A stretch of 41,592 nt of DNA from Candidatus Zixiibacteriota bacterium (GCA_036170655.1 JAVHPP010000091.1:1-41592), one strand, 5' to 3'; shown: positions 8,234 through 25,492, counted from the stretch's first letter. Notes: a model not told the origin generated them from the letters alone. Made by a program: numbers and translations.

Positions 8234-9223
8234 TCACCCGTTGTCGATTCGGACAGTCCCCGGCAGGGGCATGCCCACCGAAGACCAGATCGCGATCCGG
8301 GCTACTTCGAGCTGTGCATGATCAGGGCTGCGTGTCGTTATGTGTTGGATCCACAGCCCCGGCGCCGCCAGAACACGCCACCACCAGCGCTGGGTGTGAC
8401 GCGCGGAGATCTTCAGAAGCTCGTACGCGGAACCGGCCACCACTGGCAACAACAGGAAATGCAGGACAAACCGATTGAAAAGCGGCGGCATCGAACCGGC
8501 GACCAACTGGTAGCTGGAATCGGCCAGCGAATACACCAAGATGGCGAGAATGGCGACGATAAAGATGAAGCTGGTCCCGCAACGCGGGTGGAAGGTCTTG
8601 TACTGTCTGACATTCTCCAGCGTCAGCTCGTCCCCGTTCTCGTAGGCGTAGATCGACATGTGTTCGGCGCCGTGGTACTCAAACAGACGGCGAAAATCCG
8701 GGAAAAAGCTGAGAGCACGGACATAGCCGACGAACATGGCCACCCGGATCAGTCCGGCCACCAGATTGAATGCTACGGCCCCTTTCTGCAGTCCCAAGGC
8801 CCGGGAAATCCACAAAGGAATGAACAGGAAGAAGAAGACTCCGACACTCAGCCCGACCAGCATCGTGAGCGCCATCGACACGGTTCCGAATCCGCCTTTC
8901 CCCTTCTTGGGATCATCACTTCCTCCAGCTGTCGGTGCGGGCCCTGATGTTTCAGATACAGTCCGGCTCTTGTCATCACGTGTGGCAATCTCGGCGGAGA
9001 AGTTCAGCGAGGCGATCCCCAGAACCAGCATTTCGAAAAACGAAATCGCCCCACGGATAATCGGGACATCCAACCAATGTTTCCGCTTGGCAAGGGATTG
9101 GTAGGATTGCCAGCGCACGACGATACCGCCATCCTGCGCGCGTACAGCCGTGGCGATCCGCTCGGATGAACGGATCATCACTCCTTCGATGACTGCCTGA
9201 CCGCCGACTTTGGGATCTGCCAT
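8234..9223 (-). CDS. DUF1385 (YqhQ-like) membrane protein, putative metal-dependent enzyme
   Basis: GGQAVIEGVM, EYHGAEH and HPRCGTSF motifs; usual position between rpmE and prfA. Start may be 9235. Confidence 0.9.
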   Translation of the reverse strand: MADPKVGGQAVIEGVMIRSSERIATAVRAQDGGIVVRWQSYQSLAKRKHWLDVPIIRGAISFFEMLVLGIASLNFSAEIATRDDKSRTVSETSGPAPTAGGSDDPKKGKGGFGTVSMALTMLVGLSVGVFFFLFIPLWISRALGLQKGAVAFNLVAGLIRVAMFVGYVRALSFFPDFRRLFEYHGAEHMSIYAYENGDELTLENVRQYKTFHPRCGTSFIFIVAILAILVYSLADSSYQLVAGSMPPLFNRFVLHFLLLPVVAGSAYELLKISARHTQRWWWRVLAAPGLWIQHITTRSPDHAQLEVARIAIWSSVGMPLPGTVRIDNG

Positions 9224-9276
9224 GTGATTTCTCATGATCTTCTATTGCTGGGCCGCTGGCACGCCTGGCAACACGA

Positions 9277-9310
9277 ACGCGACGGGATCGGTCTTGCCTT
9301 CCCGTCGCGT
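9277..9310 (-). terminator. 11-bp stem-loop after rpmE (partial terminator or mRNA stabiliser)
   Basis: Perfect inverted repeat ACGCGACGGGA-N12-TCCCGTCGCGT; only a weak U-tract on the minus strand. Confidence 0.45.
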
Positions 9311-9341
9311 GCAATGCCCGCCGTGGCAGACTAATTGATAT

Positions 9342-9590
9342 CTATGGCTTTGCGGTGGCCGCTTCTTGAGAGCCAGTACCGGTCTCTGAGCCGACCATGC
9401 CATATTTGCGGCGGAACTTCTCCACCCGTCCAGCCGTGTCGATTAGTTTCTGCTTGCCAGTAAAGAATGGGTGGCAAGCCGAGCAGATCTCGACATGCAG
9501 ATCCTTGACCGTCGAGCGTGTCGGGATCTCATTGCCGCAGGCGCACTTGATGGTTGTCTCGTAGTACTTCGGATGAATGTCTGGTTTCAT
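9342..9590 (-). CDS. rpmE: 50S ribosomal protein L31 (zinc-binding type A)
   Basis: [12 protein letters not shown]...[25 protein letters not shown]. Confidence 0.97.
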
Positions 9591-9631
9591 TTCTTCTCTC
9601 CACTTCGCCCCAACATCATTTCGGGATTACC

Positions 9632-9660
9632 ATGATACGCAATCGTCCTGGAAATGACAA
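9632..9660 (-). promoter_or_regulatory. Sigma70-type promoter of the rpmE operon
   Basis: TTGTCA, 17 nt, TATCAT on the minus strand, ~40 nt upstream of the rpmE ATG. Confidence 0.6.
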
Positions 9661-9698
9661 CCGATTTGTTGTCTTTGTTCCCAATGACGAGAGACACT

Positions 9699-11630
9699 CT
9701 ATGTCAACTGCCTGCGAACGAGGTTTTCCGCGCCGCCAGCGACGACCAGCTCCTGCGCGACTGTGGAGAGTGGCGAAAATGGGAACTGGCGGCCATCACA
9801 CGCGATGACCGACTTTTGATAATCAACATCGAGGTCTGGGCCAACAATTGTCGGTGCGGTGGCATCACTGTACTTCTCTCGCAGGAAGTCTACCAGGGCT
9901 GGGCACTCGAAGACGACAAAGCCGTTGTTGAAGGCGTTGCGCTTATAGGTCTCGTTGAATGACACAGCAATCACGCATTGGATACCACGGTAGTCGAGCG
10001 CGGTGGCTGCTTGCTCGCGGGAGGAGCCGGTGCCGAAATTGCGACCGGCGACGATGATGTCGCCCTTCTGGGCGAGTGTCTGGAAACTCGGGTCGTAGTT
10101 CAGCATGCAGGCGGCGGCCATTTCCTCATGTGTCAGATTGTCTTTGTAAGTAAAGGTGCCGCCGTAGATACCGTCGGTGTTGAGGTTGTCGACAGGGAGC
10201 CAGAGCGCTCGTCCGTGGATCGAAGACGGGAATCCGGCGACGATTTCTGTCGCTTTGGCCGCCTGCGGCGGTTTGTGATGCTTCGTTGATGAAATCCGTC
10301 CTGCCACTTCGCAGAAGTCGACGGGAGCCGAGATGTAGCCGGCCACAGCGGAGGCGGCCACGACCGCCGGGCTGCCGAGATAGACCTGCGCGTCACGATG
10401 GCCCATGCGCCCCTTGAAGTTGCGATTGGTCGCGCTGATGCCGACTTCGCCGGCCTGCAGCGTGCCGGTGCCCAGCCCGATACAGGGACCACACCCGGAC
10501 GGGAGCATGATGGCGCCGGCATCCATCAGAATCTTCCAGTAGCCCGACTCCTCGGCCTGCTTCTGGATATTGACGGAGGCCGCCGCGACATAGAACTTCA
10601 CCCCATCGGCGACACGCTTTCCCTTGATGATCCGGGCAGCCTCGGCCAGGTCTTCGAGACGCGCGTTGACACAACTCAGCAGGTACGCTTTGTCGATCTT
10701 GACTCGCTTTTTCTGAATCTCCGGCAGGGAGATCATGGTCTTGACATGGTTGGGACCAGACACGTGCGGGATCACTGACGATAGATCGAGTGTCAGATCA
10801 ATTGCGTAATACGCATCGGGATCGGGACTGAGCCTGTCGGCATGCCAGCGGTCAACATCGGCCCGTGAGTACCGCGGCGTCCCCTGCAAGGCAAGAAAAT
10901 CGGCACGGCCATGGAGATAGTCACGGAGCACAAGATCGAATGGGAAGACCCCGGCCAGTGCGCCCCATTCGGTCGTCATATTGGCGATGCTCATCCGCTG
11001 ATCCATCGAGATACTGGCGATGCCATCACCGGCGAACTCAACCGCCATGTTGAGCACTTCATCGTGGTTGAACAATCCGCAGAGTGTGATAATGATATCT
11101 TTCCCCACGACTCCCGGGCGCAGCCGCCCGGTCAGCGTCACACGTGCGACCGGGGGCGCCTGCCACCATGTCTGCCCAGTGGCCCAGATCGCCGCCGCGT
11201 CGGTGCGTACCACCGGCGTGCCCAGCGCCGCCATCGCGCCATATAGATTGGAATGAGAGTCGCTGCCGACAACCATGCTTCCCGGCGTGACGTAGCCGTA
11301 CTCGACCATGACCTGATGAGAGATGCCGGTCCCGGCCGGGTAGAAGTCGATGCCGTGCTCCCTGGCGAACACTTCGATCCTGGCGTATTTGCCGAGATTA
11401 TCAGAGGACGTGTTCTGGATATCGTGATCGATGGCAAAAACCGGCTGACGCGGATCAAAAACCCGGCCGGCGCCAATGGTCTTGAACTTGCTCATTACCG
11501 CGCTGGTATTGTCGTGCGTCATCACGTGCCTGGGGCGGATGCGGATGAAATCCCCGGCGTGCACCAGTTCTCCAGACGCAATCCCCACGGCGTGGGCGGT
11601 GGCGATTTTTTCTACAAGTGTCTGGCCCAT
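9699..11630 (-). CDS. lysF: Single-chain homoaconitase-family hydratase (fungal Lys4/LysF-like; large and swivel domains fused)
   Basis: HDNT, DHD.QN, SDSHSN and TPVVRTDAAAIWATGQTWWQ motifs; [4Fe-4S] ligands SCVN and CGPCIG; C-terminal DNLNTDGIY and NFGTGSSREQA. ATG 11630 with SD GGGAG. Confidence 0.88.
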   Translation of the reverse strand: MGQTLVEKIATAHAVGIASGELVHAGDFIRIRPRHVMTHDNTSAVMSKFKTIGAGRVFDPRQPVFAIDHDIQNTSSDNLGKYARIEVFAREHGIDFYPAGTGISHQVMVEYGYVTPGSMVVGSDSHSNLYGAMAALGTPVVRTDAAAIWATGQTWWQAPPVARVTLTGRLRPGVVGKDIIITLCGLFNHDEVLNMAVEFAGDGIASISMDQRMSIANMTTEWGALAGVFPFDLVLRDYLHGRADFLALQGTPRYSRADVDRWHADRLSPDPDAYYAIDLTLDLSSVIPHVSGPNHVKTMISLPEIQKKRVKIDKAYLLSCVNARLEDLAEAARIIKGKRVADGVKFYVAAASVNIQKQAEESGYWKILMDAGAIMLPSGCGPCIGLGTGTLQAGEVGISATNRNFKGRMGHRDAQVYLGSPAVVAASAVAGYISAPVDFCEVAGRISSTKHHKPPQAAKATEIVAGFPSSIHGRALWLPVDNLNTDGIYGGTFTYKDNLTHEEMAAACMLNYDPSFQTLAQKGDIIVAGRNFGTGSSREQAATALDYRGIQCVIAVSFNETYKRNAFNNGFVVFECPALVDFLREKYSDATAPTIVGPDLDVDYQKSVIACDGRQFPFSPLSTVAQELVVAGGAENLVRRQLT

Positions 11631-11669
11631 CGACGGACTCCCCGAATATTCAGATTCCAAAAACAGCGA

Positions 11670-12203
11670 TCACCCACCCACCAGCTCGAAATCGATAAAG
11701 TCGGCGTGATGCAGCACGATGCCCTCGGGGGTGCGTTTCCCGCCGGCCGCTTCTTTTGAGTGCATGGCAACAACATGGATAACCGCATCGGGAAGACCCT
11801 GCTCCCAGCAAAGGCCGACCCCCGAAAACGGGTGACGGAGCAGCTTGCCGTGCTCGCTTTTCACGAACTGTCCATCTTTCTTTGTGAATTCGAGCGCCTT
11901 GCCGACATCGGCCAGCATCGCACCGGCAATCAGGATGTCGCGGTTCACCATATTCCGGCTGCCATAGGATTTGTCGAGGACATCCCAGCAGGCCATGCAC
12001 ATCTTGCAAACCGTCCGGACATGTTCAACGAATGTCACGCTGACATTGGGCACCAGAAGAGTGAACGGCATGGCGCGCAGATCATCGTATGTCAGATCGC
12101 TGCGCTTCATCGCCGCGGTCCAGGCCGCAGCCGTTTTTGCGCGCAATGCCGCGTCCTTGATTTCATTGATCTCCGGGAAAATGGACAGGATTTCTTCGGG
12201 CAT
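11670..12203 (-). CDS. HD/HDIG-superfamily protein with HD motif changed to AD
   Basis: EHV...MLADVGK...RHPFSG...MHSKE...HHADF pattern; ATG 12203 with SD GAGG (alternative start 12224). Confidence 0.8.
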   Translation of the reverse strand: MPEEILSIFPEINEIKDAALRAKTAAAWTAAMKRSDLTYDDLRAMPFTLLVPNVSVTFVEHVRTVCKMCMACWDVLDKSYGSRNMVNRDILIAGAMLADVGKALEFTKKDGQFVKSEHGKLLRHPFSGVGLCWEQGLPDAVIHVVAMHSKEAAGGKRTPEGIVLHHADFIDFELVGG

Positions 12204-12224
12204 GGGATATCCTCGCTGTTCCAT

Positions 12225-13004
12225 TCAAGTCAGGTGCCGCAGCGGCGGTCCGTCATAAGTGATGTCGGTTGGGTGGATCCGCCGCATCGGCTTCTGGCGT
12301 GTCTTTTCTTCATGCGCATGGGCCAGAAGACCGGGCAGTCGTGAGATCATAAAGAACGCATTTCCAAGCGCCGGCGGAATGTTAAGATCAACCAAGACGG
12401 CGGCAATGGCGCCATCTACGTTCAACGGCAGCGACTTTCCGGTCGCACGTGCAATCGCCGCTTCCAGAGCACGCGCCATCTTCAGTCCATCTCCGGCCTT
12501 CTCGAGATCGTCAACCATCTGCAGCAGCCGTGTTGTGCGCGGGTCTTTGGTATGCAGGCGGTGGCCAAATCCAGGGAGGCGCGCACCGCGGGCCTTGTAC
12601 GAGTCGAACGTCGACTTGGCCGCATCTTCGACAGACAGTCCCTTGTCCCTGACCAGAATCAGGGCCTCACGCATCGCGGTCATGCTGTCTTCAATCGCGC
12701 CGCCATGGAACTTCGAGATTGCGAGTATCCCGGCCGCGACCGCTGAGCCGAGAGGCGCGCCCGTCGATGCCACTGTCACTGTGGCGAGCGCCGATGGCGG
12801 CGATGTGCCATGGTCGAGCGATGAGACAAAGATCGCATCGAGGATCGTGGCCGTGGCCTTGTCTGGGAGTTCGCCAGTCAATGCAAGGTAAATTGCCTCG
12901 GCAAATCCGGCATGTCCCATCAATTCTTCGACCGGGTACCCGCGCAGACGGATTGTATTCGGCCCGATTTCCGTGATGGCCGACGGCCAGTTCAGTTCAC
13001 CCAT
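12225..13004 (-). CDS. Citryl-CoA lyase (short citrate-synthase family)
   Basis: 259 aa; IRLRGY, DHG..PPS, HGGA, PGFGHR, DPR and NVDG motifs; too short for a full citrate synthase. Confidence 0.87.
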   Translation of the reverse strand: MGELNWPSAITEIGPNTIRLRGYPVEELMGHAGFAEAIYLALTGELPDKATATILDAIFVSSLDHGTSPPSALATVTVASTGAPLGSAVAAGILAISKFHGGAIEDSMTAMREALILVRDKGLSVEDAAKSTFDSYKARGARLPGFGHRLHTKDPRTTRLLQMVDDLEKAGDGLKMARALEAAIARATGKSLPLNVDGAIAAVLVDLNIPPALGNAFFMISRLPGLLAHAHEEKTRQKPMRRIHPTDITYDGPPLRHLT

Positions 13005-13075
13005 TTGTCACCTCAATCTTGCCAGTCCGGTCTGTGGAACAAACGCATTGTGCATCCGTGTCACAACGCCCGCCG

Positions 13076-14002
13076 TCATCGGGAAATGGGGATTTTCGCG
13101 GTGTCCATAGGGCGGATGACCGATTTGACGGCATCGGGAATGTCGCCAAAGTTATCGACCACGGTGACGCCGACCTCGCGCAGACGTTTGACTTTCCCTT
13201 CATGGGTACCACGGCCGCCTTCGATGATCGCACCGGCGTGTGAGAACCGTGTTCCCGACTGGGCGCCCTTCCCGCCAATGTAGGCGACCAGAGGCTTGGT
13301 GAATTTTCCGGCAGCAATCAAGTCAGCCACGCGCTCTTCCTGTGTCGAGCCGATTTCGCCGAACATCACGATGCAATCCGTTTCCGGATCCGCCTCGAAT
13401 AACTCCATGACCGCCGGATGGTCTGTGCCGACGATGGCGTCACCACCCACATGAACGATGGTCGAAAGACCAATGCCAGCGCGGGACAGATAGTAGGCGA
13501 TCGAGGAGGTGATCCCGCCCGATCGCGACGACACACCCACCCGACCGGGAAGAAACCAATCTCTGGCCGCGGCGGCGGAACCACCCATCATCCCAAACAC
13601 GGCCTTGCCGGGCGAGAGCAATCCCAAGGTGTTCGGGCCGATGAATCGCGCCCCCGCGTTTCTGGCGGTGGCGGCGATTTCGAGGACATCGTAGATCGGC
13701 ACACGGTCAGGGACGATTACCAGAAGCTTGATGCCAGCCGCCAGCGCTTCCAGCGCGGCATTCTTCACCAACGGCGCGGGCACAAAAACGACCGAGACAT
13801 CCAAGACACCGATCTTCTCCACTGCTTCGATGACCGTATCAAAGACGGGTACACCCAGCACATTCTGTCCCCCTTTGCCGGGTGTGCAGCCGGCGACCAC
13901 ACGGGTGCCGTAACGCTGCATCAATTGTGTGCGCGCCATTCCCTCGCGCCCGGTGATACCCTGCACAATGACAGTCTTGATTTCGTCGACGAGGATGCTC
14001 AT
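13076..14002 (-). CDS. SucD-like CoA-ligase alpha subunit (citryl-CoA synthetase small-subunit-like)
   Basis: MSILVD, VQGITG, PGKGG, IGPNTLG, SRSGG, GGD and GEIG motifs; phospho-His motif FSHAGA. Confidence 0.9.
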   Translation of the reverse strand: MSILVDEIKTVIVQGITGREGMARTQLMQRYGTRVVAGCTPGKGGQNVLGVPVFDTVIEAVEKIGVLDVSVVFVPAPLVKNAALEALAAGIKLLVIVPDRVPIYDVLEIAATARNAGARFIGPNTLGLLSPGKAVFGMMGGSAAAARDWFLPGRVGVSSRSGGITSSIAYYLSRAGIGLSTIVHVGGDAIVGTDHPAVMELFEADPETDCIVMFGEIGSTQEERVADLIAAGKFTKPLVAYIGGKGAQSGTRFSHAGAIIEGGRGTHEGKVKRLREVGVTVVDNFGDIPDAVKSVIRPMDTAKIPISR

Positions 14003-14051
14003 GGTATCTGAGAATGATACGTTTCTTCTGGTTCTCCCCTGACGGGTCAAC

Positions 14052-14075
14052 GGACACGGCAAGCCGTGTCCCTAC
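14052..14075 (-). repeat. REP-like palindrome (GTAG family)
   Basis: Minus strand GTAG-GGACACGGC-TT-GCCGTGTCC architecture in the beta/alpha intergenic gap; single copy in the window. Confidence 0.65.
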
Positions 14076-14089
14076 AAAGTCATGGATCC

Positions 14090-15652
14090 TCAGTTTTCGG
14101 CCGCGACCTTCGCACGGTATTCATCCAGTCCAGGAATCGGCAGGATGACCCGTCCGCCGCTTTTGCCACCGACGCGGCATTCGACTTCGCACGCCAGACA
14201 TTCGATGCACTTGCCGGCTTTGGCCTCGTCACGCGAGATGTTCAGCACCACAGCGCCATTTTCTTCTTTCAGGATCTGGGGCACGCAGGTCTTGATGCAA
14301 CTCTTCGTCGTGCACTCGCGGCACAGCGCGTGGTCGAAAATGATCCGGCCGGTCGGAGTTTCAAAGGAGTATGGGTCCTTGGCCACGAAGTCGAGAGTGA
14401 CGGGCGCCATGGGGCGCGGCGCCGTGTCCCCTTGCCGTGCATTGAGTAATGATTGCATCCGTTCGGCGCAGAAGTCGGCGGTGTCGTCTTTCTTGTATCC
14501 CTCGACCGGCGCCGGGAGGTTTTTCGTGTATTCGGTGAGAATGTGGATCGCCTGATCTTCTCCGTTGCCGCCGAGACGGATCACGGCGGGAATGGAAAGA
14601 TTCTCCTCCCAGAATGCCTTGACCAACCCGCGCGCGGAGTGAAATTGCTCCTGTGAGGCAACACCTGATCCCGAACCGAAATAACCGTCAATGTTGGGTT
14701 GCGAGAGAATGATCTTGGCGGCACGGTAGACTTTCGAGGCGGGCGGATTGCCGGATGTGTCGGTAAAGTTGGCGATCTTGTATCCGCGTTTGACCAGCGC
14801 ATCCATCGACATCATGGAACCGCCACCACCGGCGCCGTGAAATCCCAGATACCCCTCTCCCCGCTTGTACCCGCGCGCCATCTCAATGAAGTAGAAGGTG
14901 CCGCGGTAGTCATTCTTTTCCACAGTCCAGGCGATTTTGTCGAGTTCGGTGGGCGGGCGCCCAAACTCGCGCGCAATTTCGATCTTCAATTCCGGGTGAC
15001 GGAACACGGCATTGTCATCGACCACGAGACGGCAATCGCACGCGGTGAGCTTGCCATCGGGACGCAGAACAAGCGGGTTGATCTCAACGGACCGCGCCTC
15101 CCACTGGCGCGCAACCTGCCAGAGTCTGAGCAGGGCCTTGGTGAGTTCGTTCTGGAGCGAACCCGTGACGCCCGTCTTGCGCACCGCCTCGCGCGCTTCG
15201 TGTTCGCGCAGCCCGAAGCGTACATCGACCGGAGTCTTCGACACACTCTTGGGAGACTGGCGCGCGAGTTCCTCAACGCCCGATCCGCCAATCGACGAAA
15301 AGATCACCAGCGGCGTCTTGTTGGCATCATCCACGATGATCCCCGCATAGAACTCGCGTATAATTTCGACCCTTTCTTCGATCAAGACCTCAGTGACATC
15401 GAAGCCGCCGAGTTTGAGCGCGAGCATTTGTTCAACGGCTTTCGTGACATCTGTCGTGGTATCGACAAACGCAATGGCGCCCTTGGCTGCACGCGATGTG
15501 GTCCAAGCCTGGGCTTTCACCACGGCAGGGAGACCGCAGATATCGAGGGCGGCCCCGACCTCACGAGCGGAACGAACAACCTGTCCCTTGGGGACAGCAA
15601 ATCCTGCTTCCCGCAGAAGCTGCTTACCCTGATATTCATGTAAACGCGCCAT
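14090..15652 (-). CDS. ATP-grasp CoA-ligase beta subunit (citryl-CoA synthetase/ACL-like) fused to a C-terminal 2x[4Fe-4S] ferredoxin domain
   Basis: LHEYQGK, VKAQ, EINPL and DDNAVFRH motifs; GAGGGGS, ANFTDTSGNP and GSGVAS resemble ACL-type substrate loops; tail CRECTTKSCIKTC...CIECLACEVEC. Confidence 0.88.
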   Translation of the reverse strand: MARLHEYQGKQLLREAGFAVPKGQVVRSAREVGAALDICGLPAVVKAQAWTTSRAAKGAIAFVDTTTDVTKAVEQMLALKLGGFDVTEVLIEERVEIIREFYAGIIVDDANKTPLVIFSSIGGSGVEELARQSPKSVSKTPVDVRFGLREHEAREAVRKTGVTGSLQNELTKALLRLWQVARQWEARSVEINPLVLRPDGKLTACDCRLVVDDNAVFRHPELKIEIAREFGRPPTELDKIAWTVEKNDYRGTFYFIEMARGYKRGEGYLGFHGAGGGGSMMSMDALVKRGYKIANFTDTSGNPPASKVYRAAKIILSQPNIDGYFGSGSGVASQEQFHSARGLVKAFWEENLSIPAVIRLGGNGEDQAIHILTEYTKNLPAPVEGYKKDDTADFCAERMQSLLNARQGDTAPRPMAPVTLDFVAKDPYSFETPTGRIIFDHALCRECTTKSCIKTCVPQILKEENGAVVLNISRDEAKAGKCIECLACEVECRVGGKSGGRVILPIPGLDEYRAKVAAEN

Positions 15653-15660
15653 AGAAAGAT

Positions 15661-15719
15661 TGACCGGCGTCGCTACCGGTCAGAATAAACAATATCGGCT
15701 GACCCAAGATGGTTGTCAA
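15661..15719 (-). promoter_or_regulatory. Putative promoter plus inverted repeat upstream of the CoA-ligase operon
   Basis: TTGACA (15719-14), 17 nt, GATATT (15696-91); then TGACCGG-N8-CCGGTCA (15661-15682) just before an SD-less ATG. Confidence 0.4.
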
Positions 15720-15909
15720 TGCTGTGCAAGATGGCACGGGAGTTTCTGACACCGCATGGGTGTTTCCCCGATCAGAGGAAGCCCCCGTACGGAAGTCAGC
15801 CTGATTCATTAACACCTCGCCCGTCCGGCGTCGGACCGAATTCGCTTGTCCTGATGTTTCGTAATTAACAATACTTGTGCCCTGACCCAAACGCACAGAA
15901 GGAGATCGA

Positions 15910-17031
15910 ATGATGGCCAAATACAAGATCGCATGGATGCCCGGCGACGGGATTGGTAACGACGTTCTGGAGGCAGCGAAGATCGTCCTCGAGGCGCTCA
16001 AACTGGATGCCGAGTACATCCACGCCGACATCGGTTGGGAGTGCTGGCGCCGGGAAGGGAACGCGCTGCCGGAGCGGACGCTCAGTCTCCTGCGTGAAAC
16101 CAAATGCGCCCTCTTCGGCGCGATCACCTCCAAACCCAAGGAAGAAGCGGAAGCCGAACTGTCACCAGCGTTGAAGGGCAAGGGGCTGAAGTACTCGTCG
16201 CCGATTGTCGGTCTGCGTCAGGCATTTCATCTGCATACCAACCTGCGTCCGTGCAAAGCATACTCCGGCAACCCGCTCAACTATCGCGAGGATATCAACC
16301 TTGTGGTCTTCCGGGAGAACACCGAGGACCTGTACTCGGGCGTGGAGTTCCATCCCGTCCCCGATGATCTTCGCGCCAAGCTCTCCGAACACAACAAGAA
16401 TATGAGGAGATTCGACGCGGTGAGTGGTTCGGACCTGGCGATCTCTTGCCGTATCCTGTCGCGCCAGGCGTGCCGTTCAATCGTTACCGGCGCCTTCGAG
16501 TATGCCCGGAAGTTCGGCTATCCATCGGTCACGGTCATTGAGAAACCGAATGTCATTCGCGAGACATCCGGGCTGATGGTGCGCACCGCGCGTGAGGTGG
16601 CCAAGAACTACCCAGCCATCAAACTCCGCGAAGCCAATATCGACGCGATGTGCATGTGGCTGATCAAAAACCCGCAGGACTACGGCGTGCTGGCGACGTC
16701 AAACCTGTTCGGCGACATCATCTCCGACTTGTGCGCGCAACTGGTCGGAGGCCTGGGATTTGCCTCTTCGGGGAACATCGGCGACACGTATGCGGTCTTC
16801 GAGCCAACGCACGGATCGGCGCCCAAGTACGCGGGCCAGTACAAGGTCAACCCGATGGCGACACTCCTGACGGTCAAGCTCATGCTCGACTGGCTCGGCG
16901 AGATCAAGATGGCGACACGCGTTGAGAGCGCCGTGGCAAAGGTGATCAAGGCGGGACAGTGCCGGACCTACGACATGGGCGGGAACAATACGACGCTGGA
17001 AGTCGCCGAGGCCGTGGCCAGAAACCTGTAA
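15910..17031 (+). CDS. Isocitrate/homoisocitrate/isopropylmalate dehydrogenase family protein
   Basis: PGDGIG, YSSPIVGLR, NLRP, RENTEDLY, NLFGDIISDL and EPTHGSAPKYAG motifs; SD AAGGAG. Confidence 0.93.
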   Translation: MMAKYKIAWMPGDGIGNDVLEAAKIVLEALKLDAEYIHADIGWECWRREGNALPERTLSLLRETKCALFGAITSKPKEEAEAELSPALKGKGLKYSSPIVGLRQAFHLHTNLRPCKAYSGNPLNYREDINLVVFRENTEDLYSGVEFHPVPDDLRAKLSEHNKNMRRFDAVSGSDLAISCRILSRQACRSIVTGAFEYARKFGYPSVTVIEKPNVIRETSGLMVRTAREVAKNYPAIKLREANIDAMCMWLIKNPQDYGVLATSNLFGDIISDLCAQLVGGLGFASSGNIGDTYAVFEPTHGSAPKYAGQYKVNPMATLLTVKLMLDWLGEIKMATRVESAVAKVIKAGQCRTYDMGGNNTTLEVAEAVARNL

Positions 17032-17109
17032 GTCAGAACCGCCGGACGCACGTGACCCGCGGCGGGAGTTGACGCTGACATGACCCATGCCGGCCCCTGC
17101 CGGTAATCG

Positions 17110-17697
17110 TTAGAAGGAATCTTTCAACGCTTTGGTGTCGGTCATCTTGCCGGTGACCTGACGGCGCAACTTGATGCGCGTCAACTCGGGATCGGACTGA
17201 AAACCATATCCGGCCATCACGTCATCTCCACGCGTGATGACCACATACCCATCCGTGGAAATCGTCCGACTCGAGTCGTTCCAGGCCAGTTGCTCGGAGG
17301 TCAGCGTTGTCCCCTTGTCGGCCCGGATGCGCACATGACCGAAAACTTCGAGGCCGCGCTGATGTTCACGGAGCAAAGCAGAATCAGCGAGAAGCAGCGA
17401 CGTGTGCTTTCCCGCCTCATTGAAGAAATCCACCAACAGTTCATAGGCCCAGGCGGAGTCGCGCTCGGCGTAGTTGACAATCCGTCCGCTCTTAATCTTG
17501 GTGGTCACCACCGCGCCGGTGAGAAACACGGTGGTGGCATTGGTGGCTTCCGACGAAGGAAATGTCTGGGCTGGCGGTTTGACCGCCGGTTCCTGGGCTC
17601 CGCAGGAGACGAAGAAGAATGCTCCCCAGAGCATGATGATCGCGGCCCGGAAACGGCCGGACGGACGGGGATCCCCTGTCGGGAGACACGTGCCCAT
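17110..17697 (-). CDS. lptC: LPS export periplasmic protein LptC
   Basis: Lipoprotein-like FFFVSC; LLADSA, TTLTSEQLAWN and GYGFQSDPEL beta-jellyroll motifs; follows kdsD. Confidence 0.8.
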   Translation of the reverse strand: MGTCLPTGDPRPSGRFRAAIIMLWGAFFFVSCGAQEPAVKPPAQTFPSSEATNATTVFLTGAVVTTKIKSGRIVNYAERDSAWAYELLVDFFNEAGKHTSLLLADSALLREHQRGLEVFGHVRIRADKGTTLTSEQLAWNDSSRTISTDGYVVITRGDDVMAGYGFQSDPELTRIKLRRQVTGKMTDTKALKDSF

Positions 17698-23045: not shown

Positions 23046-23074
23046 ATGGTATCGGGAGCGAAGGCGCGTGTCAA
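23046..23074 (-). promoter_or_regulatory. Sigma70-type promoter of the gatC-kds operon
   Basis: TTGACA, 17 nt, TACCAT on the minus strand. Confidence 0.65.
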
Positions 23075-23211
23075 TGCGATTCCCCTGCACCCGTGCGCAC
23101 ATAATCGTTACCCCCTTCAACCGGGCTGGTAGACACGGAAACCCGCTTGCCCGCCTTGGTCATCTCACGTTCATTGTCTGCTGTGCTGTTCCTTGGAGAG
23201 CCGACCCGGCC

Positions 23212-24390
23212 ATGAAAATTCCTCCCGAACATATTCAAGGTGCGATTGCTGGCGCTGGGCTTGACGGCTGGTTGCTCTGCGACTTCCACGGATCGAATCC
23301 CATCGCAGGTGAGCTCGTCGGCGTCTCGGGGCTCGTCACCCGCAGATGGTGCTGCTGGGTGCCACGCCACGGACGCCTCCAAATGGTCTGCCACACCATG
23401 GAGCGCACACCGTTTTCGCATCTCGACACCGAATACCGGTATTACCTGTCGTGGCGTGAGTTGGACGCGGCGATGCGATCGGCGTTGGGCGACGCCAGGC
23501 GGATTGCGATGGAATACTCCCCCGGTAATGCGATTCCGTATGTCGCCCATGTCGACGCGGGAACCGTCGAGAAGATCCGTTCGTGGGGGATCGAGGTGGT
23601 GTCGTCCGCGGACTTGGTGGCGCATTTTCTGGCACGCTGGACCCCCGAACAGATCGATGGACACCGAACAGCGGCGGCCGCTCTGCTTGACATCAAGAAC
23701 CAGACATTTGTGTGGATCGGTGAATGCTTGAGAAAAGGCAAGTCTATCAGTGAGTACGACGTGGCCGGCTTTGTCAGAGATCAGTTTGCGGCACGCGGGC
23801 TGATGACCGATGCGGGACCGATCTGCGCCGTTGATGGGCATGCCGGGAGTCCGCATTACGAACCGGCCGCCACCGGCTCGACGCGACTGGGTCCGGAACA
23901 ACTGGTGCTGCTTGACCTCTGGGCCAAATGGAGCACACCCGATGCCGTCTATGCCGACATCACCTGGACTGGATTCACCGGCAGCGTTGTCCCGCGACCG
24001 ATGGCCGAGGTGTTCGATATCGTGCGCCGGGCGCGAGACAGCGCGGTCGAATACGCCAACGTGCGTCTCGCCGCCGGAGCGGCACTCCACGCGTGTGAAA
24101 TTGACGACGCCTGCCGCCGCGTCATCGCCGACGCCGGATATGGCGACCGGTTTATCCACCGGACTGGGCATTCAATCGGCACCAGCGTTCATGGCGTGGG
24201 ACCAAATATCGACAACCTCGAAACGCAAGATCAGCGGCTCCTCGAAAACGGGATGTGCTTCTCGGTTGAACCCGGCATTTATCTGCCCGAGTTCGGGATC
24301 CGGTCGGAGATCGATGTCCTGATCGAAAATGATCGTGCCGTGGTCACAACGCTGCCGCTGCAAACGGAGATTGTCCCACTGCTGCCGTGA
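23212..24390 (+). CDS. Xaa-Pro aminopeptidase family (M24) metallopeptidase
   Basis: PHY, DLWAK, YADIT, HRTGHSIG, EPGIY and RSE metal-ligand motifs. ATG 23212; the longer ORF call overlaps gatC. Confidence 0.92.
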   Translation: MKIPPEHIQGAIAGAGLDGWLLCDFHGSNPIAGELVGVSGLVTRRWCCWVPRHGRLQMVCHTMERTPFSHLDTEYRYYLSWRELDAAMRSALGDARRIAMEYSPGNAIPYVAHVDAGTVEKIRSWGIEVVSSADLVAHFLARWTPEQIDGHRTAAAALLDIKNQTFVWIGECLRKGKSISEYDVAGFVRDQFAARGLMTDAGPICAVDGHAGSPHYEPAATGSTRLGPEQLVLLDLWAKWSTPDAVYADITWTGFTGSVVPRPMAEVFDIVRRARDSAVEYANVRLAAGAALHACEIDDACRRVIADAGYGDRFIHRTGHSIGTSVHGVGPNIDNLETQDQRLLENGMCFSVEPGIYLPEFGIRSEIDVLIENDRAVVTTLPLQTEIVPLLP

Positions 24391-24394
24391 GCGC

Positions 24395-24847
24395 ATGCAG
24401 ATTCCCCAGGATGGCGAGATGACAGCGATTCTCACTCCTGCACGCAGACAAATGCTGAAGGAACGGATGGCAACGGTCCCCTACCCGAACCTGCTGGGCA
24501 TGAAACTGGTCCGACTCGCGCCGGGTGAGGCCCGCATCAGCCTGCGGGCGGCGGTGCGCTTGCGTCAGTATCAGGGACTGATCCATGGGGGTGCGATCGC
24601 ATCGCTGGCAGATACGGCGGCGACTTTCGCGGCATTGACAGCCGTCCCGGACGGAATCGACGTGGTCACGATTGAATTCAAACTGAACTTCCTGGTTCCG
24701 TTCAAGAGCGGGCGCGCGCTGGCCGTCGGACAGATTCTGCGCTTGGGACAGCGAATCTGCACAGCCGATGTGCGGATCATCGCCGCACATAAAATAGCGG
24801 CCGTCGGGCTGTTTACCATGATGTGTTTCTCGTGCAAAGACGCTTGA
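24395..24847 (+). CDS. PaaI family thioesterase (hotdog fold)
   Basis: GLIHGGAIASLAD and VTIEFKLNFL motifs; start 24395 or 24419. Confidence 0.9.
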   Translation: MQIPQDGEMTAILTPARRQMLKERMATVPYPNLLGMKLVRLAPGEARISLRAAVRLRQYQGLIHGGAIASLADTAATFAALTAVPDGIDVVTIEFKLNFLVPFKSGRALAVGQILRLGQRICTADVRIIAAHKIAAVGLFTMMCFSCKDA

Positions 24848-24880
24848 ACAGGAGTGAGAGAGCAGCGAGCAAGACACGAT

Positions 24881-25492
24881 ATGTACATCTCCGAACAAAC
24901 GATCGCATCGTGGGCATCCCGTTACGGATCACCGCAGACATGGTCGCATCAACAGCCCATGACAGAGAGCGATTACGGGATTGTCACCGGGAGTCAGAAG
25001 CACGGCCGGCGCCACGACGTCACGTTCTACATCGAACAGCATGGCCGAATCGCGGTCATCGCGAAACCGTTCTACCCACCCGGTCTCTACCGCGCCCCGT
25101 CTGGGGGACTTGAACCGGACGAATCTCTGGAAACAGGCGCACGGCGCGAGGCGCTCGAAGAAACGGGGCTGCGAATGACGCTGGTCCAATATCTGCTGTT
25201 CGCACGCGTGACGTTTGCATCCGGCCGCCACCGGCTCGAATGGCACTCGCATGTTTTCTCGGCAACAACCAGCGATGCAGTTTTGATACCGACTGATCAC
25301 CATGAGATCCGCGAAGCCCGCTGGGCCTCGCCCGGTGAGTTTGCCGCATTCGGAAGAATTATGCGTCAGTCGCAACGGGGTGGCCTGTTGTATCGCGCGG
25401 CCTTGCACGAGCGAGTCGCAGCACTTCATCCGCTGTTCCGGGACACGGCCATCAAGGCAGCGGGAACACATTCATCGCGTCCCACCCGTTGA
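24881..25492 (+). CDS. NUDIX hydrolase
   Basis: Nudix box GGLEPDESLETGARREALEETG; start uncertain (24854 or 24881). Confidence 0.88.
   Translation: MYISEQTIASWASRYGSPQTWSHQQPMTESDYGIVTGSQKHGRRHDVTFYIEQHGRIAVIAKPFYPPGLYRAPSGGLEPDESLETGARREALEETGLRMTLVQYLLFARVTFASGRHRLEWHSHVFSATTSDAVLIPTDHHEIREARWASPGEFAAFGRIMRQSQRGGLLYRAALHERVAALHPLFRDTAIKAAGTHSSRPTR

Follow-up and report, generated by a model that had tools for sequence, protein, structure and literature searches.

What pathway is formed when genes for a CoA-ligase, a citryl-CoA-lyase-type enzyme, a homoaconitase-type hydratase and a decarboxylating dehydrogenase stand together? The question is raised by a module of six genes at 9699..17031 of JAVHPP010000091.1, a stretch of 41,592 nt from Candidatus Zixiibacteriota bacterium that was analysed at its full length and is called the window here. 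The genome carrying the module is referred to as G000; other genomes, loci and contigs are numbered with the letters G, L and C. An earlier note on this DNA had described five co-oriented genes facing a divergent dehydrogenase gene across 257 nt, and all six open reading frames (ORFs) and the gap between the divergent starts were confirmed. On the minus strand, separated by 27, 71, 0 and 9 nt, lie the genes of the ligase beta subunit (14090-15652), the ligase alpha subunit (13076-14062), the lyase (12225-13004), an HD-fold protein (11670-12224) and the hydratase (9699-11660). The dehydrogenase gene is on the plus strand (15910-17031).

The reading that we favour, with somewhat more confidence than doubt, is a carboxylating, lysine-catabolic route: 2-oxoadipate + CO2 + NADPH + ATP + CoA -> acetyl-CoA + 2-oxoglutarate. 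The dehydrogenase would carboxylate 2-oxoadipate with CO2 and NADPH to homoisocitrate, which the Lys4-like hydratase, judged by its family, would dehydrate to cis-homoaconitate. A PrpD-like enzyme encoded on contig C61 of the same genome (a second LeuCD pair elsewhere) would hydrate cis-homoaconitate to the non-standard (S)-homocitrate. The alpha/beta ligase would convert this with ATP into homocitryl-CoA, which the lyase would cleave to acetyl-CoA and 2-oxoglutarate. As a whole, this would be the upper alpha-aminoadipate (AAA) pathway reversed: where that pathway has the irreversible homocitrate synthase, the module would have a 'homocitrate lyase' that needs ATP and acts in two steps. 2-Oxoadipate may be supplied from lysine by the products of lysine-6-dehydrogenase-like, aldehyde dehydrogenase and LysN-like aminotransferase genes elsewhere in G000. 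Judged from the sequences, it is probable that the substrates belong to the C7 (homo) tricarboxylate series and, given this series, the cleavage direction seems likely.

The ligase does not look like a succinyl-CoA synthetase (SCS). Its SucD-like alpha subunit, with a probable start at 14002 (residue 21) that gives 308 aa, keeps FSHAGA, which we take to be the phospho-His motif, and scores under the NCBIfam cut-off of SucD (292.6 < 336). The beta subunit, an ATP-grasp protein of 520 aa and the proposed large subunit of a homocitrate-CoA ligase, scores under that of SucC (231.7 < 370). The SCS forms GxVNGAGLAM, NIFGGIxRCD and RLxGTN are not present in its substrate loops, which read GAGGGGSMM, GSGSGVASQEQ and RLGGN; the SucC that G000 has of its own carries SCS-type loops and groups with E. 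coli SucC. A grouping with SucCD, named in the earlier note among the findings that would refute its proposal, was not seen. In a tree of 18 rows, with no sequence of citryl-CoA synthetase (CCS) or ATP-citrate lyase (ACL) among them, beta formed a clade of its own apart from SucC (SH-aLRT 100). On the scores, loops and separate clade, SCS was ruled out. In a HMMER alignment the beta loops are CCS-like (GGGGS, ANFTDxxGNPP) and one residue longer than in the CCS of H. thermophilus (6hxq). The best whole-chain sequence and fold matches of beta (predicted structure with pLDDT 89) are SCS structures, and the fold search gave SCS, CCS and ACL chains together, discriminating neither substrate nor tail. 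The ferredoxin-like fusion described earlier is real: beta ends in a 2x[4Fe-4S]-type tail with two four-Cys motifs (C444-C456 and C482-C492), whose eight Cys are invariant in 29 aligned betas and present in 80/80 homologous loci. The lyase, a 259-aa protein of citrate-synthase fold and the proposed (S)-homocitryl-CoA lyase, passes NF004869 (235 > 212), matches PDB 6hxp with E 2.3e-54 and keeps DHG, GHR, DPR and NVDG of Ccl.

The fused, fungal-type (Lys4-like) hydratase, for which we propose the interconversion of homoisocitrate and cis-homoaconitate, has a probable start at 11630 and joins large and small domains (small-domain motif at residue 494). It passes the homoaconitase equivalog TIGR00139 (742.8 > 529.9). 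Where the hydratase is split into LeuC and LeuD, the small subunit retains PGKYTY of the fused orthologues, presumably a Lys4 motif. The dehydrogenase (373 aa), the proposed 2-oxoadipate reductive carboxylase, scores below every named NCBIfam cut-off; its best score was with methanogen AksF2 (326.7 < 540), and no fungal Lys12 model matched. Its substrate motif, YSSPIVGLR (95-103), has neither the Asn of isocitrate dehydrogenase (IDH) nor the Glu of isopropylmalate dehydrogenase (IPMDH); S. pombe Lys12 (3ty3) has YSSPIVALR, whereas IDH-type chains have S-x-N-V. The SPIV core was present in all 45 module dehydrogenases where the pattern could be read, 13 further rows being without a pattern match. 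The cofactor loop HGSAPKY (301-307), whose Lys-Tyr we read as an NADP signature, is found in 36 of the 37 full-length module dehydrogenases (KH in the other one). It is also the form in the NADP-IDH of G000, and HGSAPDI is that of Thermus homoisocitrate dehydrogenase (HICDH) and of the other IDH-like enzyme of G000. Module-type dehydrogenases, including the copies from a sister operon described below, group together in one clade (100/99) to which neither IDH nor IPMDH belongs, with long outgroup branches.

Is the module, then, a second citrate branch? G000 (2.6 Mb, 100% complete by markers) was found to have the separate standard set about which the earlier note had asked: Si-citrate synthase, aconitase, NADP-IDH and SucCD over cut-offs, plus a second IDH-like enzyme with an IDH motif. 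It also has four 2-oxoacid oxidoreductase alpha subunits. We place the module in the C7 series because the hydratase is a homoaconitase over cut-off, the dehydrogenase motif is Lys12-like, the citrate set is separate and the beta loop is longer. A further citrate/isocitrate/2-oxoglutarate branch, the first of two options in the earlier note, would join an ATP-citrate-lyase-like reaction to aconitase and IDH functions of 'homo' enzymes and would serve either to form acetyl-CoA or to make citrate with a yield of ATP. It would suit the closeness of the lyase to H. thermophilus Ccl, with its motifs kept, the CCS-like beta loops and the NADP motif, which is as in bacterial IDH. The PrpD family is annotated as acting on citrate/aconitate too (by the name of NF006943), the ligase-lyase trio occurs in another context in L042, and one locus has CitE/CitF homologues. 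This option is disfavoured and appears unlikely, since it would be redundant with the standard enzymes of G000, the IDH S-x-N-V is absent from all module dehydrogenases read, which have the S. pombe HICDH-type motif, and the hydratase passes the homoaconitase equivalog; achiral citrate, moreover, would not explain why an extra dehydratase follows the lyase type.

Nor does lysine synthesis explain the module. As the earlier note had it, there is no DRE-TIM synthase gene and no LysW gene in the window. In the whole of G000, homocitrate synthase, LysX, LysA, DapB and KamA were not found, nor was a thioester (AAA) reductase over cut-off, and the single DRE-TIM gene scores 184.5 < 413.55 with TIGR02146, below all cut-offs for LeuA and homocitrate synthase. 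Moreover, tblastn with a panel of 42 E. coli queries, by which distant orthologues could be missed, gave no DapA, IlvI/H/D, HisG/D/A/F, ArgB/C/E or ThrB/C. By these sequence searches the host looks like a multiple amino-acid auxotroph and a heterotroph, and the missing pathways argue against autotrophy. Lysine synthesis in G000 was ruled out by the absence of LysX, LysA, DapB, DapA, AAA reductase and homocitrate synthase; together with the separate citrate synthase, aconitase, IDH and SucCD, this makes both a spare branch of the tricarboxylic acid (TCA) cycle and lysine synthesis unlikely. Of the second option in the earlier note, a homocitryl-CoA route, the part that replaces homocitrate synthase is therefore not supported for this genome, and the part that degrades 2-oxoadipate is the best reading. 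For such degradation G000 has a protein most like P. horikoshii PH1688, which we take to be lysine 6-dehydrogenase, a LysN-like aminotransferase (2egy, E 2.6e-91) and, on C134, an aldehyde dehydrogenase gene that could not be assigned. Its acyl-CoA dehydrogenase has the substrate helix as in glutaryl-CoA dehydrogenases, and the whole chain scores best with short-chain enzymes.

Some other loci of G000 touch the same metabolism. A pair of the 2-hydroxyacyl-CoA dehydratase/benzoyl-CoA reductase family lies near the aldehyde dehydrogenase gene (G000:C134:5550-8018, L153). A MurE with the DNPR motif, presumably of the meso-diaminopimelate type, and a DapF-like gene are at G000:C104:11745-13175 and C105:14234-15031 (L180, L181), with DapA, DapB and LysA not found. 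At G000:C125:20001-27451 (L095), in this genome without IlvI/H/D, genes for an acyl-CoA dehydrogenase and for crotonase-like and 3-hydroxyacyl-CoA-dehydrogenase-like proteins accompany a LeuA-family gene, which passes no cut-off, and a LeuB gene, which scores over its cut-off but carries the Lys-Tyr (NADP-type) motif; this LeuA/LeuB set may also run backwards. A homologue of LarA-family nickel-dependent racemases, below subfamily cut-offs, lies between ndk/sucCD and mdh/icd (G000:C140:24088-25458, L098), and at G000:C113:5536-7059 (L158) repeated N-terminal helix-turn-helix-like segments are fused to a degenerate aconitase-like domain.

The neighbourhood is conserved. Scanning species genomes with the beta alignment gave at least 543 relatives among 599 stretches, and the best 80 loci, many of which end at contig ends, were kept. 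The groups named for them include Zixibacteria, Calditrichota, KSB1, Marinimicrobia, Anaerolineae, Aminicenantes, Acidobacteriota, Gemmatimonadetes and Hydrothermota. In these 80 loci alpha is present, next to beta, in 75, the lyase in 66, the HD protein in 47, the dehydrogenase in 42 and an aconitase-family enzyme in 41, and further recurrent genes are PrpD-like (15) and a second LeuCD pair (17). Genes for a 2-oxoacid dehydrogenase, a 2-oxoacid:ferredoxin oxidoreductase and, as named from sequence likeness, ETF/Hdr-like proteins also recur near the module. A LysW-pathway cluster does not recur in the best 80 loci, and a plasmid search gave only paralogues, under 60% identity. Thus the synteny proposed as a check in the earlier note holds across many uncultured phyla, and the six genes are a real, conserved pathway built from known enzyme families. 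With the ligase clade, this supports the core of that note, one reversible route acetyl-CoA + 2-oxoacid <-> tricarboxylyl-CoA <-> tricarboxylate <-> longer 2-oxoacid + CO2. In other Zixibacteria (L123-L132), a second SucCD-like pair, with the loop GMFPGGAGFG and in a separate SucC-like clade, often lies beside asparaginase II, HD, TrpB2 and LeuC2 genes; from its sequence and surroundings it is a candidate alternative ligase for the same pathway.

The earlier note had warned that citrate-synthase-fold enzymes attack the Si face, while (R)-homocitrate comes from Re-type synthases. The caveat is real, but an extra dehydratase that is not encoded in the window, either PrpD-like or a second LeuCD, appears to answer it. 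According to PMC3556520, fungal homoaconitases interconvert homoaconitate and homoisocitrate only, and methylcitrate formed by an enzyme of citrate-synthase fold has to undergo a syn elimination, a reaction that PrpD carries out and aconitases cannot; PrpD is replaceable by AcnD plus PrpF, as stated in PMC5690661. From the methylcitrate geometry, by analogy, a citrate-synthase-fold lyase should require (S)-homocitrate and a special hydro-lyase. On contig C61 G000 has a PrpD-family gene, 48% identical to the operon-borne PrpD-like one, so that the module, called 'self-contained' before, has a seventh component elsewhere in the genome. The C184 LeuCD pair of G000 was rejected as the second hydro-lyase, as it gave no match to the second-LeuC (LeuC2) query at E 1e-95 and has a different LeuD motif.

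The distribution of the two dehydratase types was read in a panel of 80 genomes, made up of G000, 35 of 40 relatives (the five omitted are all <90% complete) and the genomes that 44 of the 80 loci come from. A dehydrogenase orthologue is present in 72, a lyase in 76 and both in 71, the core genomes. PrpD-like orthologues occur in 52/80 (56 matches, of which 4 with 27-32% paralogues only were dropped), LeuC2 orthologues in 20/80 (35 matches, 15 dropped with a best value of 43% or less) and the two together in 0/80. Exactly one of them is found in 68 of the 71 core genomes (49 PrpD-like, 19 LeuC2), and neither in three (G008, 88% complete, G011 and G029). In G024, G026 and G035, dehydrogenase, lyase, PrpD-like and LeuC2 genes are all absent. 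The pattern also appears in Zixibacteria without the Fe-S-tailed beta, which carry a different SucCD-like family. The HD protein follows the dehydratase type, with Ala/Cys-Asp in 17/17 loci with PrpD and His(Arg)-Asp in 17/17 with LeuCD2 (13 loci unassignable); counter to this rule, G025, G034 and G038 have PrpD and an intact-HD copy, there beside the other SucCD-like pair. Taken from these gene patterns, the dehydratases fit an (S)-homocitrate intermediate.

A sister operon of the same dehydrogenase family offers a natural comparison. In G011 it combines this dehydrogenase with a CaiB CoA-transferase, a single LeuCD pair and an enzyme of the HMG-CoA-lyase family that scores over cut-off, together with a LysR-type gene in divergent orientation. 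The sister dehydrogenase also occurs in records of Geothrix and Holophaga. Among 80 metagenome loci read around the sister dehydrogenase, many of them short, an HMG-CoA-lyase-type gene is present in 52, CaiB in 39 and LeuC as a single copy in 31; a second LeuC is present in none of them, and PrpD in 1. None of the 52 lyases has PrpD or a second LeuC adjoining, and the lone PrpD locus has no HMG-CoA-lyase-type gene. HMG-CoA-lyase-fold enzymes presumably belong with the Re-type synthases, so one hydro-lyase would suffice in the sister operon; both pro-3S lyase systems (citrate-synthase-fold and CitE/CitF) come with the extra dehydratase. The lone PrpD locus (L246:8001-16401) holds a third cleavage system, with dehydrogenase, HD (Ile-Asp), Lys4-type, PrpD, CitE and CitF homologues downstream of a Na+-decarboxylase-like cluster. 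The dehydrogenase family was also met once with a PrpB/isocitrate-lyase-family gene and LeuCD (L261:2156-8311), which makes a fourth arrangement. Saccharopine/lysine-dehydrogenase-family genes lie beside the sister operon in 3/80 loci.

In which direction does the route run? The dehydrogenase clade goes together with three different systems of activation plus lyase, and in no locus that was read does a synthase accompany it. These pairings, the NADP-type motif, the lack of lysine synthesis genes and of several other amino-acid pathways in the 100% complete G000, and the fact that the hosts mostly do not finish the LysW route (LysX in 14 of the 71 core genomes, LysA in 23, neither in 40) are why cleavage is favoured. 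In six loci lysine-dehydrogenase-family, LysN-like or glutaryl-CoA-dehydrogenase-like genes adjoin module genes; among these, in G015 a lysine-dehydrogenase-like gene is 4 kb from the module, in G028 a LysN-like gene is 270 nt from the dehydrogenase gene, and in G025 a glutaryl-CoA-dehydrogenase-like gene stands beside prpD-hacA.

Several observations weigh against lysine-derived cleavage. Lysine-dehydrogenase-like (61/80) and LysN-like (57/80) genes occur in pathway-negative genomes too and do not track the module, 13 of the 71 core genomes have no lysine-dehydrogenase-like match, and most of the 80 module loci hold no upstream lysine gene; the co-occurrence of these two types, of KamA (14/80) and of glutaryl-CoA-dehydrogenase-like genes with the module is not discriminating. 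With a glutaryl-CoA-dehydrogenase-like enzyme and 2-oxoacid oxidoreductases in G000, the classical route from 2-oxoadipate may already exist there, and it may coexist in the 30/71 core genomes with a glutaryl-CoA-dehydrogenase-like match. The NADP motif would equally suit an enzyme that works oxidatively and supplies NADPH. The PrpD-like protein is just 23% identical to E. coli PrpD, and G029, a 100% complete genome, has dehydrogenase and lyase with neither PrpD-like nor LeuC2. On the ligase tree the dehydratase type changes 3 times, 2 of these changes being forced by starred branches in the careful tree, and a sign test of the PrpD/LeuC2 exclusion on independent pairs was not significant (p 0.5). 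Finally, a ligase-lyase trio with the same loop stands in G061 (L042) with no dehydrogenase or PrpD orthologue; the substrate is thus not settled by the presence of the trio. In that locus (L042:6319-13435) the trio lies behind genes resembling ADP-ribosylglycohydrolase-fold proteins, and its lyase carries a Glu at the position of K98 in the window lyase, which is Arg or Lys in most lyases of the module.

Run forwards, the same enzymes and the same (S)-homocitrate series would take acetyl-CoA and 2-oxoglutarate to homocitrate, with a gain of ATP at the ligase, and on to 2-oxoadipate, CO2 and NADPH; the product would then enter glutaryl-CoA oxidation or, in some Anaerolineae, the synthesis of lysine by the LysW route. 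All steps should, by analogy with ACL and IDH, lie near equilibrium, and hosts may therefore differ in the direction that they use. Forward use would also fit the 2-oxoacid oxidoreductase or dehydrogenase-complex and ETF genes that adjoin the module in several loci, the glutaryl-CoA-dehydrogenase-like genes of G000 and G025, and the eight core genomes with LysX and without LysA; in five of these eight (G053, G063, G067, G068 and G075) no homocitrate synthase was found over cut-off or in the lysX cluster, a further point against cleavage. We hold it to be the less probable direction, with perhaps a modest chance. G000 has no LysX, LysA, DapB or AAA reductase and already has citrate synthase, aconitase, IDH, oxidoreductases and SucCD; 41/71 core genomes have no match to this glutaryl-CoA-dehydrogenase-like protein (other types were not searched), whereas three pathway-negative genomes matched; and 4/14 lysX clusters have a LeuA-family synthase of their own.

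A different substrate series (2-methylcitrate, longer (homo)n-citrates or isopropylmalate), or enzymes that share no one series, could be suspected from the methylcitrate dehydratase family of PrpD, from the VorB-like branched-chain 2-oxoacid oxidoreductase genes that adjoin the sister operon in 9/80 loci and from the sub-cut-off score with AksF2. We consider this improbable, because a PrpB-like lyase is lacking in G000 and the module loci, 2-methylisocitrate is a tertiary alcohol that a dehydrogenase could not oxidise, separate LeuA/B/C/D-like genes are present in G000 and the motif is not of the IPMDH type; the strong synteny argues for one series. With E. coli PrpB no tblastn match was obtained in G000 or the module loci, nor was a PrpC orthologue found, and the methylcitrate cycle was ruled out on this basis. 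A more speculative proposal, to which we give only a slight chance, is that the module belongs to a cycle like the reductive TCA cycle but with intermediates longer by one carbon, of which it would form the upper arm: glutaryl-CoA -> 2-oxoadipate -> homoisocitrate -> (S)-homocitryl-CoA -> acetyl-CoA + 2-oxoglutarate. There, a 2-oxoacid:ferredoxin oxidoreductase would carboxylate glutaryl-CoA, the Fe-S tail of the ligase would tie the pathway to the ferredoxin redox state, and 2-oxoglutarate could return to glutaryl-CoA via 2-hydroxyglutaryl-/glutaconyl-CoA. Candidate genes in G000 are the oxidoreductases, the glutaryl-CoA-dehydrogenase-like enzyme and the 2-hydroxyacyl-CoA-dehydratase-family pair. 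Such a double-carboxylation route or electron sink, if true, would be undescribed; the host, however, looks heterotrophic.

The remaining gene of the module encodes a 184-aa protein with a YhaM-like HD domain and no gap to the lyase stop. It has no Pfam or NCBIfam match of its own. Its fold (YhaM Z 16.5, rmsd 3.4, 160 aligned; Atlas 0.98) confirms the 'HD-variant' named earlier: the His-Asp metal-ligand pair is replaced by Ala-Asp and the other His/Asp residues are invariant. The fold matches indicated no function, cyanamide hydratase Ddi2 (Z 7.8) being among many tied rows. In the 257-nt intergenic region (15653..15909) there are a sigma70-like site on the minus strand (15719-15691) and a hairpin (15682-15661), both consensus matches only. 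The shared divergent control region of the earlier note is present as a layout here and is lineage-specific: of the 42 loci holding the dehydrogenase gene it is divergent in 3 and co-oriented in 39, and promoter-like sites across 9200-17200 are at chance level (3 found vs 2.5 expected). The flanks are housekeeping genes (prfA, LPS/Kdo, pyrG) and the GC content is even; the nearest homologues that bear a name are labelled Zixibacteria. A short ORF at 9322-9609 (minus), between the hydratase and DUF1385/prfA genes, reads like ribosomal protein L31. ORFs 8-1405, 23071-24171, 24344-24898 and 24929-25471 of the window gave no confident Pfam or NCBIfam family.

If the favoured cleavage reading is true, it means a CO2-incorporating breakdown of lysine (2-oxoadipate) across many uncultured phyla, with two intermediates for which no report was found, (S)-homocitrate in metabolism and homocitryl-CoA. 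The glutaryl-CoA dehydrogenase step is a high-potential one; anaerobes could bypass it and keep a five-carbon skeleton for glutamate. In the literature searched, with subscription papers and supplements outside its scope, we found no paper with citryl-CoA lyase and homoaconitase together and none on homocitryl-CoA or homocitrate lyase; the route appears undescribed. What is new here is the PrpD/LeuC2 exclusion together with its tie to lyase type and HD motif, as well as the lack of lysine synthesis in the genome as a whole. From the way in which the dehydratase type follows the lyase type, a first proposal can be made for the substrates of one MmgE/PrpD subfamily and one LeuCD subfamily. In metagenome-assembled genome studies ccsAB/ccl serve as reverse-TCA markers (PMC10439189), so the module genes could be misread as autotrophy. 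They could also be misread as succinyl-CoA synthetase or leucine synthesis.

Among known systems, SucCD gives the best whole-chain sequence and fold matches of beta, but the module ligase differs from it in its sub-cut-off scores, its substrate loops and its own clade. Like the 2-methylcitrate cycle, in which a citrate-synthase-fold enzyme is paired with PrpD or, instead of PrpD, with an aconitase-family enzyme and its helper (PMC5690661), the module has a PrpD-like or LeuCD2 partner for its lyase; unlike that cycle, it has a decarboxylating dehydrogenase and an ATP-dependent ligase instead of a PrpB-like lyase or PrpC orthologue. With CcsAB (6hxq) and Ccl (6hxp) of the reductive TCA cycle of H. 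thermophilus it shares the three-gene split, alpha and beta ligase with a stand-alone lyase of citrate-synthase fold. In contrast to CcsAB, the module beta has the 2x[4Fe-4S]-type tail and the longer loop, and in contrast to the reverse-TCA system as a whole the partners are of homoaconitase/HICDH type, with PrpD or LeuCD2 and the HD protein, in an auxotrophic host with Si-citrate synthase. With the upper AAA pathway of fungi and Thermus it shares the Lys4-type homoaconitase over cut-off and the Lys12-type substrate motif. It differs in that the host has no homocitrate synthase and no completion by the LysW or saccharopine route was found in it, and in the NADP-type motif in place of the Asp-Ile (HGSAPDI) of Thermus HICDH; it is also predicted to run the other way and through (S)-homocitrate, not the (R) form. 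The pathway resembles two known ones, the citrate cleavage of the reverse TCA cycle, though one carbon longer, and the upper AAA pathway in reverse, but belongs to neither.

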